In this document: positions 6,203 through 50,114 of the stretch, one piece after another
How the letters are laid out: every line of letters begins with the position of its first letter
Numbering within the stretch: the stretch's first letter is position 1
Source of the DNA: Rhodospirillales bacterium
GTDB taxonomy: Bacteria; Pseudomonadota; Alphaproteobacteria; Rhodospirillales; UBA2165
Direction: 5' to 3'
Length of the DNA stretch: 64,000 nt
Assembly (NCBI GenBank): GCA_965207535.1
Contig: CBDBMR010000008.1
Span: forward strand, 8-64,007
Position numbers and translations under genes: made by a program
Notes under the pieces: generated by a model
The model's database searches: none
Told to the model about the DNA's origin: nothing
The model's input: the letters and a program-made list of their open reading frames with translations, nothing else

Positions 6203-6279
6203 TGGTGGGCCTGGCAGGACTCGAACCTACAACCAGACCGTTATGAGCGGCCGGCTCTAACCAATTGAGCTACAGGCCC
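6203..6279 (-). tRNA. tRNA-Ile2 (anticodon CAT, lysidine-type)
   Basis: GGGCCTGTAGCTCAATTGGTTAGAGCCGGCCGCTCATAACGGTCTGGTTGTAGGTTCGAGTCCTGCCAGGCCCACCA. Full cloverleaf with CCA; ileX-like sequence, downstream of rpoD. Confidence 0.93.
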
Positions 6280-43338: not shown

Positions 43339-43818
43339 TCAAGACAGATGATCGAGCGGCAGGGCGGTGGAATATTTCACCTGATTGAGGGCGAAGGAGG
43401 ATTTGATGTTGGATACGCCGGGTATGCGGGTCAAATGCTCCATCAGAAATCGCTCGTATGCCTCGAGGTCGGGGACGACCACCCGCAGGAGGTAATCGGA
43501 CTCGCCCGTCATGAGATAGCACTCGACCACCTCGGGCCGCGCCTCGATGGCCGCCTCGAACTTGGACAAGTTCTCTTCGATCTGCTTTTCCAGGGTGACG
43601 TGAATGAAGACGCTGACCTTCAGATCAATGGTGTTGCCGTCCACCAGCGCAACCCGCTTCTTGATGACCCCCGCATCGGTGAGAAGTTTCACCCGGCGAA
43701 GGCAAGGCGACGGCGACAACCCCACCCGTTCGGCCAGTTCCGTGTTGGTCAGGCCGCCATCGGATTGAAGCTCGGTGAGGATTCGTGCATCGATCGCGTC
43801 CAGCTCCATAGTTGGCAC
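43339..43818 (-). CDS. Lrp/AsnC family regulator (divergent from AceE-like gene)
   Basis: LDAIDARIL.ELQ.DG.LTN.ELAERVGLSPSPCLRRV, ECYLMTGESDY. Confidence 0.93.
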   Translation of the reverse strand: MPTMELDAIDARILTELQSDGGLTNTELAERVGLSPSPCLRRVKLLTDAGVIKKRVALVDGNTIDLKVSVFIHVTLEKQIEENLSKFEAAIEARPEVVECYLMTGESDYLLRVVVPDLEAYERFLMEHLTRIPGVSNIKSSFALNQVKYSTALPLDHLS

Positions 43819-43926
43819 TTTATGCCGTTTTTCTATCTTTTCCTAATTGAAAATTCCAATCTCGGCATCTTCAGGCGCATAGTTCGCAAGGATATTTTTT
43901 GCGAATCCTGGCAATTTCGTCGGGTC

Positions 43927-46141
43927 ATGCAGATGATCGGTCCCAGCCGGACCCGCACCGGCCAACCGAGCCCCGAGATCGCCCTGGAGGAGCTTCAGCG
44001 CAAGATTCTGTGGCTCTCCGCCTGGATGATCCACAACGCCAATCACCTTCGCCCCGATGAGGACGGCCTCAAGGTCGGCGGGCACCAGGCGTCCTGCGCG
44101 TCCATGGTGTCGATCATGACCGCGCTCTATTTCTCCGTGCTCCGGCCCGAGGACCGGGTCGCCGTGAAGCCCCACGCCGCGCCGGTGTTTCATGCCATCC
44201 AATACCTCCTCGGCAATCAGGGCCTGGACAAGCTGGAGAACTTCCGTGCCTTCCGCGGCGCCCAGGCATATCCGTCCCGGACCAAGGACACCGACGACGT
44301 GGATTTCTCAACCGGGTCGGTGGGCCTTGGGGCGGCGATGACCGCATTCGCCTCCATGATCCAGGATTACATCCGGGCCAAGGACTGGGGCCGCACGCTG
44401 AAACCCGGCCGGATGATCGCCCTCGTGGGCGATGCGGAACTGGACGAGGGTAATATCTATGAGTGCCTGCTCGAAGGATGGAAACACGAACTCCGCAACA
44501 CCTGGTGGGTCATCGACTATAACCGCCAGAGCCTGGACGGAATCGTTCACGAAGGGATCTACAGCCGGATCGAAAAGACTTTCGCCGCGTTCGACTGGGA
44601 CGTGGTCACCCTGAAATACGGGGCATTGCAGCGGGCCGCCTTCGCCGAGCCCGGCGGCGAAACGCTGCGCCAGTGGATCGACGACTGCCCCAATCCCCTC
44701 TATTCGGCGCTGACCTATCAGGGAGGCGCCGCATGGCGGGAGCGGCTGCTTGACGACTTCTCGAACGATGAGGATGCCCTCGCCCTCATTTCCCGCCGGT
44801 CCGACGAGGAATTGGCCGAACTGATGGTGAGCCTCGGCGGCCACTGCCTGCCGACCCTGATCGACACCTTCGCCGCCATCGATCACGACCGTCCGGTGTG
44901 CTTCATTGCCTACACCATCAAGGGATGGGGACTGCCGCTCGCCGGCCACAAGGACAACCATGCCGGCATTCTGACACCGGATCAGATGGCCGGCTTCCGG
45001 AAGACCATGGGCATCCGTCCGGGGCATGAATGGGAACCTCACGAGGGGATCGACATTTCGAAGGCCGATTTCGAGGCCTTCCTGGACGCGGTGCCGTTCA
45101 ACGCGGGCGGCGATCGCCGCACATCGGCAAGACCCGTTCCGGTTCCCGCGCTGCCCGAAACGGCGGCCGGCGCCGCCTCGACCCAAGAAGGGTTCGGCAG
45201 GATCCTCAACGAAATCGGCCGTTCCGATGAGCCTTATGCGGACCGGATCGTAACCCTGTCGCCGGATGTCAGCGTATCGACCAACCTCGGACCGTGGATC
45301 AATCGGCGGAATCTGTTCGCCGCGGAGACCATCAGCGACACATTCCGCCAGGAAAAGGTGGTCAGCGGCCAAAAGTGGAGTTTCGATCCCGGCGGTCAGC
45401 ATATCGAATTGGGGATCGCCGAAAACAACCTGTTCCTCGCCTTGGCCGCCGCCGGGTTGTCCCATTCGCTGTTCGGCGAACGGCTGCTGCCTATCGGCAC
45501 TCTCTATGATCCGTTCATCGCCCGAGGGCTCGATGCGCTGAACTACGCCTGCTACCAGGATGCCCGTTTCCTGCTGGTGGCCACCCCGTCCGGGGTCACC
45601 TTGGCGCCCGAGGGGGGCGCCCACCAATCCATCGGCACGCCGCTGATCGGCATGGCTCAGGACGGTCTGGCCGCGTTCGAGCCCGCCTTCGTGGACGAGC
45701 TCCGGACGATCATGGAATGGTCGTTCGACTACATGCAGCGCGATGGTGCGGGCGATCCGGATCCCGCCACATGGCTTCGGGATCACACCGGCGGCTCGGT
45801 CTATCTCCGCTGTTCGACGCGCAAACTGGAGCAACCGGTAAGAGAGTTCACTGCCGGCCAGAAGGACGACCTGATCAACGGTGCCTATTGGCTGAGGCGT
45901 CCCGGTCCCAACTGCGAGTTGATCATCGCCTATCAGGGTGTCGTGGCGCCGGAAGCGATGACCGCGGCAGGCATGGCGGCGGAGCATTTCCGGGATATCG
46001 GCGTCCTCGCCGTGACGTCCGGCGACCGCCTCAATGCGGGCTGGCAGGCGGCGCAACGGGCGCGGCGTCACGGCGCGGCAACCGCCGAATGCCATATCGA
46101 GCGTCTGCTGGCCGGAATTCCGGGACATGCCCGTCTGCTTA
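43927..46141 (+). CDS. TPP-dependent 2-oxoacid dehydrogenase E1/transketolase-like (AceE-like), exon 1
   Basis: KVGGHQAS, DFSTGSVGLG, GDAELDEG, YNRQSLD, ELGIAENN, APEGGAHQS; ends at the intron. Confidence 0.9.
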
Positions 46142-48170
46142 TTGCGCCAGGTTAAGCCCTGGAGAGGAGGATGACATGATCTGAAACCTCTCGTCGCGAT
46201 CCAGCGGGTTCGACTCCCGCCCGGCAAAGGCGCAGCCCGCCGGCCGGAAGCGAGTCTTGCATGGCGTGCGGCGACGCTCGTCGTGAAGCGTAGACAGCAG
46301 GTGATGAAGCGGCGTGCAGCCTCGAAATCGGGAAATCGATGACGCCTTCATTGTTAAGCAGGTGGGGGCAGTACCGGAAGCGCCGTTACAGGCGAGGCGC
46401 AACGGGTCGTCCGGGGTCGTGGATCGGCGCAAAGTCACAGGATGGATCGCCAGGGAACCTGGGAGATCCTGCTCTTGCCCGCGGGCAAGGACGCTGGAAA
46501 GGGGACCGCCGGCGTGAACAATCCAGACCCCGGCCCGTCGCCGGGCCTGCGCGGCGATGGGAGCGCCCCACAGGGCGAACACGAACCCCGGCAGGCGCCT
46601 GTGGAGCCGGCTGGCGAAACCAATAAGCCGAAGGCCATGCGGGGGCAGGAAGTCGTAGCGCTCTGATAATACCGCTGAAGGCGGGGAACCGTGACCATCG
46701 GGACCCGCTGGAGGGAAGCGGAGCGTCACCTGAACAGACCCACTGATGGGAAACGCTGGAGGAAACCCTGAGTTCCACCAACACGTACACGAAACAGCAG
46801 TGGATAGCCGAACAGGCGAGGGAGCATCCGGATCGGGTGTTCACGTCCCTGCACCATCTGATCGACGGCGAGTGGATGCGCGAAGCGTATCGCCTGACGC
46901 GCAAGGATGGGGCGACAGGCATCGACGGCGTAACGGCCGCCGACTACGAGAAGGACCTTGAGGCCAATCTTGACGACCTCCTGGGCCGGATCAAGTCGGG
47001 CCGTTACTTCGCGCCGCCGGTGCGACGCCACTACATCCCTAAAGCGGACGGCACGAAACGACCGCTCGGCATTCCGACGTTCGAAGACAAGGTGGCGCAA
47101 CGGGCGATCCTGATGCTGCTGGAGCCGATCTACGAGGCGGACTTTCTGCCGTGCTCTTACGGCTTCCGGCCCAAGCGGTCGGCTCATGACGCCCTGGACG
47201 CACTACGCAAGGGCATCATTGAGCAGCGCCAAAGATGGGTGATCGACGCGGATTTGAAGTCCTACTTCGACTCGATCTCGCACACCCACCTGCGGTCATT
47301 CCTCGACCTGCGGATCAAGGACGGCGTCGCAAGGCGCATGATCGACAAATGGCTGAAAGCGGGGGTGCTCGAAGAGGGCACCGTGCACAGGCCGGTCGCT
47401 GGCGCACCCCAAGGTGGGGTGCTCTCGCCGATTCTCTCCAATATTTTCCTGCACCATGTGCTGGACAAGTGGTTCGAGAACGAGGCGAGGCCGCGCTTGC
47501 GCGGCAACTGCCAGCTGGTGCGATTCGCCGATGATTTTGTCGTTGCTCTCGAAGACCGCCAGAGCGGCAAGCGGCTGCTTGACGTTCTGGGCAAACGTCT
47601 CGGTCGATACGGGCTCACGCTCCATGAGACCAAGACGCGCTATGTGGACTTCCGCCGGAGGCGTCCCTACGGGCGCCACTGGATGGCATCGGCCACGACG
47701 TTCGACTTCCTCGGCTTCACCCATGTTTGGGGGAGGTCGATGCAAGGCAAGGACGTCGTTCGCCAAATCACGGCGAAAGGCCGTTTCGCCCGCGCGCTGA
47801 AATCGGTGCATGACTGGTGCAAGAGCAACCGGCACTTGCCGATCGAGGCGCAGCATGACTATCTTGCTCGAGCGATCCGGGGCCACTGCGCATATTATGG
47901 TCTTGCGGGAAACGGCAAACGTCTGGAGTGGTTCCGCTACCAGGTCGCCCGCACATGGCGGAAGTGGCTTGCACGCCGCAGCCGCCTGCGTCGAATGAAC
48001 TGGGACCGGATGAACGAAACCCTCAAGCGCTACCCCCTGCCGTCAGTCAAGTTCGTGCGCTCATGGCAAAACTCCTTGAGCGAACCTGTCAGGTGAGGAA
48101 CCGAGTGCGTCAATCGCGCACGCTCGGGTCTGTGGGGGGAGGGGCTCGGCAACGACCCCTCCTACCCGGC
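46142..48170 (+). mobile_element. Group II intron (bacterial class E-like, no endonuclease domain)
   Basis: 5' TTGCG. EBS1 TAAGCAG (46355-46361) is complementary to exon end CTGCTTA. RT ORF present. DV at about 48098-48130; DVI with bulged A48164; ends CCTACCCGGC. Removal restores the host frame. Confidence 0.9.
46837..48096 (+). CDS. ltrA: Group II intron reverse transcriptase/maturase
   Basis: IPKADG.KRPLGIP, SYGFRP.RSAH, DLKSYFD, PQGGVLSP, RFADD, FDFLGF. Frame is open upstream to 46747. Confidence 0.95.
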   Translation: MFTSLHHLIDGEWMREAYRLTRKDGATGIDGVTAADYEKDLEANLDDLLGRIKSGRYFAPPVRRHYIPKADGTKRPLGIPTFEDKVAQRAILMLLEPIYEADFLPCSYGFRPKRSAHDALDALRKGIIEQRQRWVIDADLKSYFDSISHTHLRSFLDLRIKDGVARRMIDKWLKAGVLEEGTVHRPVAGAPQGGVLSPILSNIFLHHVLDKWFENEARPRLRGNCQLVRFADDFVVALEDRQSGKRLLDVLGKRLGRYGLTLHETKTRYVDFRRRRPYGRHWMASATTFDFLGFTHVWGRSMQGKDVVRQITAKGRFARALKSVHDWCKSNRHLPIEAQHDYLARAIRGHCAYYGLAGNGKRLEWFRYQVARTWRKWLARRSRLRRMNWDRMNETLKRYPLPSVKFVRSWQNSLSEPVR

Positions 48171-48358
48171 CGGTTCACGACGGACACCCGGCGGCACTTT
48201 CCTGGCTCGGCGGCGTTCGCGGACATCGGACCTCGGCGTTGGGCGTCGAGCATTTCGGGCAAACCGGCACCATCAACGATCTTTACGCACACTTTGAAAT
48301 CGATTGTGATGCTATTCTCAGGGCCGCCGCCGCATTTCGCGGCCGGCCAATTCAGTAG
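48171..48358 (+). CDS. AceE/transketolase-like gene, exon 2
   Basis: Spliced A|CG GTT CAC GAC GGA CAC CCG = T-V-H-D-G-H-P, then ALSWLGGVRGH...LGVEHFGQTGTINDLY; joined CDS is 800 aa. Confidence 0.88.
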
Positions 48359-48378
48359 AGCCAAGGGGGAGACACGAA

Positions 48379-48957
48379 ATGGCCGACAACCAGCCAGGAA
48401 TTCCGGCTCCAACCATCAGCGAGGTGGTCCTGAAGACCGGCCGGTTCGATATCATGCGGGATTGGTACGTCACCGCACTGGCGACCGAGCCGTTTTTCAC
48501 CCGCGGCCGGCCGGAGAAAACATCGTGGACCAAGTCCCAGCAAATTGCCTTCTTCAAGCTCACCGGCTCTTATCCCTATACGCAGATACTCGGCATCTTC
48601 GAGGTGGACGGCACCGGCGATACGCCCGGCACGGACCCGGGCATGCATCATTTTCAGATGGCCCACGCCAGCTTCGATGAGTTGTTCGATCGCTACGAGC
48701 TCCTCAAGGCAGCTGGCATCTCTCCGTCCCAGACCTGGAATCATGGTGTCAGCACCAGCTTCTATTACGAGGATCCGGATGGAAACTGGGCCGAAATGAA
48801 CTGCGTCAATTTCGATACCGAGGAGGAGTTCCTGGGCTACTTCGAGACCGAGGCCTACAAGAAGAACATCTCCGGCATTCCCATCGACCCGGACGAGTAT
48901 ATCGGACGCTACCGCGACGGGACGCCGCGCAGGGAATTGGTCGTAATACCCGTCTGA
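48379..48957 (+). CDS. VOC (glyoxalase/extradiol dioxygenase) family protein
   Basis: GMHHFQM, WNHGVSTSFYYEDPDGNWAE. Confidence 0.85.
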   Translation: MADNQPGIPAPTISEVVLKTGRFDIMRDWYVTALATEPFFTRGRPEKTSWTKSQQIAFFKLTGSYPYTQILGIFEVDGTGDTPGTDPGMHHFQMAHASFDELFDRYELLKAAGISPSQTWNHGVSTSFYYEDPDGNWAEMNCVNFDTEEEFLGYFETEAYKKNISGIPIDPDEYIGRYRDGTPRRELVVIPV

Positions 48958-49082
48958 GCCTGTCCGGTGGGCGACCGCCCACAAAATTCCGGCCAAATCC
49001 CTTGGTTCGGGCGGAACATTCCGCCTATGCTTTCCGCTACGACTCGCACACGAAAAGCACGCGCAACAGGGAGGTCAGGACC

Positions 49083-50114
49083 ATGTTCAAGAAATTTGTT
49101 CTCGCATCTGCCGCAGTGGCGGCCATCGGCGCCGGCCAGGCAACCGCCGCCGATCTGAAGATCGCACATTTCGTCACCCCAAAGCATTCGGTGTCCCAGT
49201 GGATCGCCAACTGGTCGAAGAAGATAGAAGCCGGGACCGCGGGCGAAGTGAAGTTCACCATCTTCCCTGGCGGGCAGTTGGGCCCGCCGCCCAAATACTA
49301 TGATATTGCACGGCGCGGACAGGCTGACATCACCTGGTTGGTCCACGGGTTCACGCCGGGGCGCTTCCCGCTGTCGGAGATTTCCAATCTGCCTTATATG
49401 GTGGCGAGCGCCGAGGTTGGCGCCAAGGTGCTCAATGACCCGACGCTCAAATCCAAGTATTTGGCGCCTGAGCATAAGGGGGTGCAACCGCTCCTGCTGA
49501 TGACCCATCAGCCGGGGAATATTCACACGGCCAAGAAAGCAATCCGTTCGGTAGACGACGTGAAAGGCATGCGGCTCCGGTTCGCTTCAGCGACCATCAA
49601 GGAATTCGTGGCCGCCCTCGGCGGCACACCCGTCGGCATGCCGCCGACCCAGATCGTCGACAACATGCAAAAGGGCTCGATTGACGGCGCCTGGACCGAC
49701 TACGGCGGAGCCGGGATTGCCTTCGGCATGGGGCCGGTGACCAAGTACACCACCGAGATGTACTCCTATGTCGCCAGCTTCTGCATCTGCATGAATAAGA
49801 AGTCCTATGATGGCCTGTCGGCAGGTGCTCGCGCCAAGGTGGATCAGTCTTTCGTCGGCGTCGAAAAGGAGGTCGGCCACGAATGGGACAAGCTCGACCC
49901 CATCGGCAAGGGCATCATGATGAAAGCCGGTATGACGCCAGTGCGGCTATCCAAGGAAGAGGATGCAAAGTTCCGTGCGATCGGCGCCAAGGTCGCCGAA
50001 GCTAAGATCGCCGAGTTGGAAAAAAAGGGCCTGCCGGCGCGGGCGGTCTACAACATGATGAGGGAACTGGCGGCCAAGCACGAAAAGACGTCGCGCAGCT
50101 TCTGGACCCAATAG
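49083..50114 (+). CDS. TRAP substrate-binding protein DctP
   Basis: Signal peptide, FPGGQLG, FTPGRFP, KGMRLR; ATG after GGAGG. Confidence 0.92.
   Translation: MFKKFVLASAAVAAIGAGQATAADLKIAHFVTPKHSVSQWIANWSKKIEAGTAGEVKFTIFPGGQLGPPPKYYDIARRGQADITWLVHGFTPGRFPLSEISNLPYMVASAEVGAKVLNDPTLKSKYLAPEHKGVQPLLLMTHQPGNIHTAKKAIRSVDDVKGMRLRFASATIKEFVAALGGTPVGMPPTQIVDNMQKGSIDGAWTDYGGAGIAFGMGPVTKYTTEMYSYVASFCICMNKKSYDGLSAGARAKVDQSFVGVEKEVGHEWDKLDPIGKGIMMKAGMTPVRLSKEEDAKFRAIGAKVAEAKIAELEKKGLPARAVYNMMRELAAKHEKTSRSFWTQ

Follow-up and report, generated by a model that had tools for sequence, protein, structure and literature searches.

The window analysed in this work, a stretch of 64,000 nucleotides (nt) from contig CBDBMR010000008.1 of a Rhodospirillales bacterium (GenBank assembly GCA_965207535.1), harbours a complete, IIB-like group II intron of 2029 nt (46142-48170, +) which splits a gene coding for a thiamine diphosphate (ThDP)-dependent E1-like (AceE/transketolase-like) protein. 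Taken together, the observations described below make it probable that this is an active intron whose intron-encoded protein (IEP) lacks an endonuclease, that it homes to the terminal inverted repeat of an IS66-family element and has recently been retrotransposed into the accessory E1-like gene, and that it would be spliced from the transcript of this gene with the help of the IEP. Unless stated otherwise, positions are those of the window, and the gene and intron features lie on its forward (+) strand.

The intron and the gene it interrupts

A group II intron in sense orientation had been proposed in the first-pass annotation of this region, which was made from the sequence and a list of its open reading frames (ORFs), and the proposal is borne out by matches to both the RNA and the protein part of the element. 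The Rfam search suggested on that occasion returned a match of a part of domain I (46211-46426) to RF02005 (group-II-D1D4-6) with 127.9 bits (E 5.6e-36; gathering score 49), and a weaker match of domains V and VI (48096-48170) to RF00029 (D5/D6). The frame of the IEP, a predicted reverse transcriptase/maturase (46747-48096), sits in domain IV and matches RVT_1 of Pfam (5.4e-37) as well as the NCBIfam model TIGR04416, "group II intron reverse transcriptase/maturase" (360.3 bits; cut-off 300), while a Pfam scan at E<=0.01 detected no endonuclease domain in it. The first canonical start codon of this frame, GTG 46837, gives a protein of 419 amino acids (aa). The frame, however, is open from 46747, the 30 codons upstream of the GTG (46747-46836) are conserved at the protein level in the intron family (…TNTYTKQQWIAEQAREHPDR…), and no ATG, GTG or TTG precedes this conserved N-terminal peptide in the intron studied here; the IEPs of the intron subgroup found in the window may begin at a non-canonical start codon. 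Some relatives carry an ATG in the region upstream of the equivalent of this GTG. The nearest plasmid-borne IEPs outside the family, found by tblastn, are ~40% identical, and the lettered class of the IEP is settled neither by this search nor by the excerpts of PMC3552965.

The 3' part of the intron consists of domain V (48098-48130), delineated with RF00029 and an alignment of D5 from the window and 53 relatives, and of domain VI (48134-48170). The catalytic triad in D5 reads AAC (48099-48101) instead of AGC, with the helix and the AC bulge kept, while domain VI has a bulged A at 48164, the seventh nucleotide from the 3' end, which is the candidate branch point according to the RF00029 alignment of D6. 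The intron begins with UUGCG (46142-46146; U1) and ends with ...GGC, the penultimate nucleotide being G 48169. Both ends thus depart from the group II consensus 5'-GUGYG ... AY-3', as had been pointed out in the annotation. Judged by the relatives described below, in which it is conserved and covaries, this deviation is a variant and gives no ground to exclude the element from the group II introns.

The boundaries were established by comparison with uninterrupted orthologues, likewise suggested in the annotation. In a protein search of 31 genomes, including that of the window, each of the six other genomes of the genus proved to have an orthologue of exon 1 with 94-95% identity. Eight orthologous loci, five from the same genus (L006-L010) and three more distant (L011, L013 and L014), were aligned with the exon ends; one genome (G004) was left aside, its gene being split over two contigs and its locus stopping before the site. 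In 8/8 loci the intron is absent and the locus is colinear, and the five congeners read CTGCT(T/C)A|CGGTTCA(C/T) at the intron position. The excision of 46142-48170 joins CTT A|CG GTT CAC, the predicted ligated junction being CTGCTTA|CGGTTCAC. Boundaries moved by one base, whether upstream or downstream, fail to give the sequence of the orthologues; therefore the coordinates 46142-48170 are exact, and relative to the uninterrupted loci there is no target-site duplication at the gene site.

Exon 1 (43927-46141) comprises codons 1-738 and the first base of codon 739, whereas exon 2 (48171-48358) supplies the last two bases of codon 739, another 61 codons and the stop codon, its first base being the C at +1 (intron-binding site 3, IBS3). 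The spliced coding sequence of 2403 nt encodes 800 aa with no internal stop, and neither exon shows any break. Excision in frame, as claimed in the annotation, is thereby upheld by an open 800-aa frame and by the colinear orthologues, and the frame shift across the junction that had been named there as refuting evidence does not occur. If the intron were retained, translation would reach a stop codon at 46153-46155 and yield a truncated protein of 742 aa ending in ...LLIAPG.

The interrupted gene had been described as an AceE/transketolase-like metabolic gene. The likeness stands: exon 1 matches the Pfam families Transketolase_N (5.2e-12) and PDH_E1_M (2.3e-5), and exon 2 matches Transketolase_C_1 (0.006). 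A housekeeping pyruvate dehydrogenase E1, however, is not what it encodes, for the protein reaches 132 bits with the equivalog model TIGR00759 (aceE), the cut-off of which is 860. Its neighbours code for an SMP-30/gluconolactonase-like protein, the product of an unassigned 238-aa ORF, a VOC/glyoxalase-fold protein, DctP, DctQ, DctM and a luciferase-like monooxygenase (LLM). On the strength of the aceE score, which is far under the cut-off, and of these neighbours, the host protein is a distant ThDP-dependent E1-like enzyme of an accessory uptake/catabolism cluster. One second match to the host gene was found in the genome of the window, a weak one with 27% identity over residues 49-223.

The IS66-family homing site

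The search for further copies and their target sites, also suggested beforehand, revealed four copies of the intron in the genome of the window, all at sites sharing TGCTTA|C, which points to site-specific mobility without target-site duplication. The copy on contig C17 (2029 nt) is identical to that of the window, and so is the copy on C15, of which 1903 nt are present (C15:1-1903) because it is cut by the contig end; the copy on C5 has two differences. These three copies have a common 5' flank of at least 64 to 106 nt, while their 3' flanks diverge after a single C. The common flank is one arm of the 109-nt inverted repeats bounding an element of ~2.97 kb (G000:C17:382736-385707, corresponding to L101 2737-5708; C5:46190-49160; C15:1904-4874), which encodes a 635-aa DDE_Tnp_IS66 transposase (1.5e-52). 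By its transposase and repeats, the element that provides the homing site belongs to the IS66 family. The repeats of IS66 begin with GTAA, and its insertion makes 8-bp duplications. If the element is taken to end with the C that follows ...GCTTA, both of the copies with two visible flanks (2/2) lie between direct repeats of 8 bp (TCGTATTC and CGCCTCGT). In the three IS copies the intron abuts ...CCCGGAATGCTTA, the end of the repeat, and its position is 1 nt inside the tip of the terminal inverted repeat. The opposite end of 3/3 elements carries the same sequence (...CCCGGAATGCTTA|C) and is empty.

The annotation had given as established that most bacterial group II introns sit in mobile DNA or at intergenic sites. 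The intron follows the rule on mobile DNA, as three of its four copies lie in an IS66-family inverted repeat, and the copy in the gene is an ectopic offshoot.

Several other features of the IS element were observed. Its 109-nt inverted repeats are unusually long, and the second protein that it encodes has 329 aa and matches DruA of Pfam (Druantia protein DruA; 6.7e-37). An inverted 19-nt piece of the same IS tip (TAAGCATTCCGGGAAGCCG, within G000:C17:385708-385740), probably the remnant of a second copy, lies ten bases past the right-hand end of the C17 element, and a truncated solo repeat is located at C3:100204-100301.

The selection of the gene site can be followed in the base pairing of the exon-binding sites (EBS) of the intron. 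EBS1, UAAGCAG in a hairpin loop (46355-46361), was located by the RF02005 alignment and by its covariation with the 5' exons in the family; it complements IBS1, the last 7 nt of exon 1 (CTGCTTA, 46135-46141), in 7/7 positions, as had been noticed in the annotation, and in 6/7 positions at the IS site, where TGCTTA is shared. In 70 relatives whose exon could be read (38 distinct EBS1/IBS1 combinations, 29 distinct EBS1 hexamers), the EBS1 loop forms a mean of 5.68/6 pairs with its own 5' exon, compared with 2.69 +/- 0.22 of 6 for shuffled partners (maximum 3.66 in 1000 shuffles). The candidate EBS2, UCGGGAA in an internal loop (46328-46334), was read by eye and would form 7 pairs, one of them G-U, with TTCCCGG of the IS site. 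The C at +1 is kept at the gene site as at the IS sites. The TGCTTAC heptamer occurs 97 times in the genome and four of these sites are occupied; therefore the intron must read more than these 7 nt.

Age of the insertion and expression of the host gene

The insertion into the gene is a recent, strain-level event, since both the congeners and contigs from other samples lack the intron and since the inserted copy shows zero divergence from two other genomic copies. Contigs of four coded runs (X1, X5, X9 and X20) were mapped on 45400-48900. The empty site, with 46141 next to 48171 (46141->48171, "skips 2029, TT..GC"), is seen in one 798-nt contig of X5, a run of unrecorded kind, and in a single contig of 465 nt from X9, which is probably a DNA run. 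The runs holding the host gene carry the label sponge metagenome.

The following course of events would account for these data. The intron, whose usual home in this genome is the terminal inverted repeat of the IS66-family element, would have retrotransposed into the sense strand of the E1-like gene, at a place resembling the homing site in IBS1 (TGCTTA), in the C at +1 and, partially, in IBS2. The transcript of the gene would be spliced with the help of the IEP, so that the 800-aa enzyme would require spliced mRNA, the truncated 742-aa product being made from mRNA that retains the intron. As the EBS2-IBS2 pairing is weaker at the gene, splicing would probably be less efficient there than at the IS site. 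The odd termini would not be damage but part of a covarying redesign of the active site that extends over the whole family (U1 with the penultimate G, the U in the junction of domains II and III, J2/3, with AAC in D5). Such a case would mean that an IS-homing intron occasionally seeds into a working gene without necessarily destroying it, and that strains of an apparently sponge-associated bacterium come to differ in an accessory catabolic cluster.

Several points stand against this course of events or limit it. At the gene, the candidate EBS2 would find a 4-bp core only (CGGG/CCCG), and therefore splicing may be poor there. The RNA run X20, a single sponge metatranscriptome (share 0.10) and the sole RNA run used, gave no contig across 46141/48171, its coverage of the exons being scarce, and favours neither splicing nor its absence. 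The D5/D6 match to RF00029, obtained in a permissive scan, has 33.9 bits (E 3e-4) and falls under the gathering score of 40; the start of the IEP is uncertain, with no usual start codon before its conserved N-terminal peptide; and the GC skew around the four copies (-0.018 to +0.013) bears no clear sign, too weak to call the replication strand. Some contigs of X20 are ~90% alike to the intron over 46197-48106 (8-10% different) and come from related introns, with DNA carry-over being possible.

The first of these points is shared by an explanation in which the intron, though able to move from its IS copies, undergoes little or no splicing in its new place, so that the gene is effectively knocked out and will decay. 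The contrast between the 4-bp IBS2 core at the gene and the 7 pairs at the IS site would fit such an outcome, and so would the accessory character of the gene, with its low aceE score and its TRAP/VOC/LLM surroundings; the two unbroken exons weigh little here, because an insertion recent enough to show 0 differences from two other copies leaves intact exons uninformative on selection. The match to IBS1, however, is better at the gene (7/7) than at the IS site (6/7), the C at +1 is kept, both exons remain unbroken, and RmInt1 is recorded in excerpts of PMC5894124 as persisting, even fixed, at an ectopic gene site. Inactivation of the gene seems unlikely.

A long-term, domesticated intron that regulates the operon by controlled splicing is very improbable. 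The sense orientation, the preserved frame and the start of the downstream genes 21 nt past the host stop codon might be expected of it, but the intron is absent from the five same-genus and the three more distant orthologous loci and from contigs of two other runs, is identical to other genomic copies and has IS ends as its main sites. Finally, a repeat misjoined into the gene during assembly, conceivable for a multi-copy intron one copy of which lies at a contig end (C15:1-1903), can scarcely be credited, as comparison with the orthologues shows both junctions to be exact to the base and a contig of X1 (45400-46225) crosses the 5' junction with 0 differences, although X1 contains every sampled word and the assembly may have been made from it, in which case it is not independent.

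The reading of a recently acquired, spliceable intron does not extend to the downstream genes. It had been supposed in the annotation that the VOC, TRAP and LLM genes perhaps depend on splicing as well; these genes have start codons of their own, and a scan of 43500-49200 for terminators gave 4 terminator-like sites versus 4.7 expected, that is, no signal, which leaves the supposition unsupported. The scan of the same region for promoters was equally devoid of signal (1 promoter-like site versus 0.9 expected).

The arrangement closely parallels RmInt1 at oxi1 and RmInt2 at ISRm17 and is a known kind of event, not a new one. RmInt1 has canonical GUGYG...AY ends and an AGC triad. According to excerpts of PMC5894124, this intron of Sinorhizobium meliloti (class D / IIB3) likewise has an IEP without an endonuclease domain and a home site in an insertion sequence, and it occasionally invades the oxi1 gene, an oxidoreductase-type chromosomal gene, because of similar IBS sequences there, the insertion being polymorphic in the population. 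Its home is ISRm2011-2 instead of an IS66-family element, and the IEP of the window is ~40% identical, over partial length, to the Sinorhizobium plasmid matches. Excerpts of PMC4615759 and PMC5894124 state that RmInt2 targets both terminal inverted repeats of ISRm17, two potential sites on opposite replication strands; in the genome studied here each of the three IS copies has one end occupied and the identical other end empty. By analogy, a preference for the lagging strand might explain the single occupied repeat per IS. In the same excerpts, Sr.md.I1 is described as associated with an IS66 element, where it lies in the transposase ORF, in contrast to the present site, which is 1 nt from the IS tip and outside that ORF. 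The window intron, moreover, is of a different lineage from both RmInt2 and Sr.md.I1.

Dependence of protein-coding host genes on splicing has precedents as well. The relaxase gene ltrB, interrupted by Ll.LtrB, has to be spliced in order to be expressed. The same is reported in excerpts of PMC4424553 for the cyanobacterial CL/ML introns of housekeeping genes. Both, however, are long-standing residents, whereas the intron of the window is a recent, strain-level ectopic copy of an IS-homing intron.

Active-site variation in the intron family

Two scans, with the IEP of the window and with that of a relative from a Paracoccus metagenome-assembled genome (MAG) contig, L050, yielded 134 loci, which allowed 72 full-length relatives, all distinct, and another 15 distinct 3' ends to be delimited; the relatives counted in the IEP scan numbered 520. 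The odd termini are a conserved trait of this family and not a sign of decay. U1 is present in 71/72 full-length relatives, as UUGCG in 47 and as UAGCG in 24, and in the same 71 introns D5 begins with GAACC and the penultimate nucleotide is G (71/71). The additional 3' ends agree with this, having the penultimate G in 15/15 and the GAACC start of D5 in 14/15, the motif being illegible in the other. Many members of the family form multi-copy, near-identical sets within a single genome, and the trait is therefore compatible with mobility. Among the 71 non-canonical relatives, 47 have U and 24 have A as the second intron nucleotide (46143), with several switches on a quick tree.

The one exception is L050, with GUGCG, GAGCC and ...GAC. 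It differs from the family at 16 of the 325 columns that are >=93% conserved, and five of these 16 are otherwise invariant (72/72): nt 1, 46656, 46702, 48100 (the middle of the triad) and 48169 (the penultimate nucleotide). The nucleotide in column 46655 changes with the one that ends the intron, being G with C in 69 sequences, A with U in 2/2 and U with A in 1/2; therefore 46655 is gamma and 46655-46657 is J2/3. This covariation was used to place J2/3 instead of minimum-free-energy folding of 46427-46735, which was no better than that of shuffled sequences (z = -0.67). The family has G-U-A in J2/3 and L050 has G-G-A, position 46656 being U in 72/72 of the family tally and G in L050 and in three canonical or partly canonical relatives, L214, L227 and L186.

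These three came from a scan for the canonical D5 pattern, which gave at least 119 stretches; among the 80 loci analysed there are at least three intermediates with an IEP identity of 52-54%. L214 is canonical at 4/4 sites and L227 at 3/3 visible sites. L186 (53% identity) has UUGCA and ...GGC, yet its J2/3 is G-G-A and its triad AGC, so that only the termini have changed; an EBS1 hexamer that fits its exon, at nt 212 of the intron, supports the placing of its 5' boundary. Plasmids of Klebsiella and Cupriavidus supplied outgroup introns with IEPs ~40% identical; these introns match RF02005 with 186-189 bits, have GAGCC and end with ...GAC or GAU. In a quick IQ-TREE phylogeny of the IEPs, L050 sits on a long branch (0.31) in a group with two non-canonical members (SH-aLRT 98), the base of the family being unresolved in this tree. 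The independent switches therefore number at least two, a rough count.

The four sites thus group as two co-changing pairs, nt 1 with the penultimate nucleotide and the second nucleotide of J2/3 with the middle of the triad. The pairs are separable, as L186 has the first change only and L050, which falls within the family, carries the canonical nucleotides at all four. In group II introns G1 is said to contact the penultimate A, and J2/3 reportedly forms base triples with the D5 triad. The pattern suggests that two covarying active-site contacts have been rebuilt in this family. In its full form, that a large mobile lineage replaced G1/A by U1/G and the G/G of J2/3 and the triad by U/A (AGC to AAC), this is a tentative proposal, somewhat short of even chances on the present alignments. 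The triad is given as AGC, and CGC in some introns, in excerpts of the review PMC4424553. An AAC triad was not found described in the literature searched, outside of which lie most subscription journals, and limited literature searches likewise found no description of two such covarying contacts.

Of the known introns compared, UHB.I2, which is a IIB intron associated with an integron and comes from a soda-lake metagenome, shares U1 and the penultimate G (5'-UUGCG..GU-3'), but has an AGC triad according to a figure legend, and its IEP was placed in CL1 by its authors (excerpts of PMC7923331). In the triad it resembles L186 (U1, AGC, J2/3 G, penultimate G) and not the family of the window intron. 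If the insertion described above holds a surprise for specialists, it may be this family-wide covarying change of the catalytic core. The family offers natural substitutions, proven by mobility, at four active-site positions usually deemed near-invariant. If the proposal is true and undescribed, the AAC introns would represent a natural isosteric variant of the catalytic triplex shared with the AGC triad of spliceosomal U6, and their ends would be a group II counterpart of the AT-AC intron termini.

As for the distribution of the family, IEPs 86-95% identical to that of the window (L016-L029) occur in MAGs labelled Chromatiales, Gammaproteobacteria and Rhodospirillaceae, and in others labelled Nitrospinota, Thermodesulfobacteriota and Gemmatimonadetes. 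To judge by these identities, it looks like the intron has spread horizontally, recently and within one habitat. In one of these loci, L023 (CBDCME010000043.1), the 3' end of an intron is followed directly by the 5' end of another (…CCCGGC|TTGCGCCAGGCT), which represents either two copies head to tail or one copy inserted at the first base of another. Elsewhere in the window, an ordinary tRNA gene (RF00005, 64.8 bits) is located at 6206-6279 on the reverse (-) strand.

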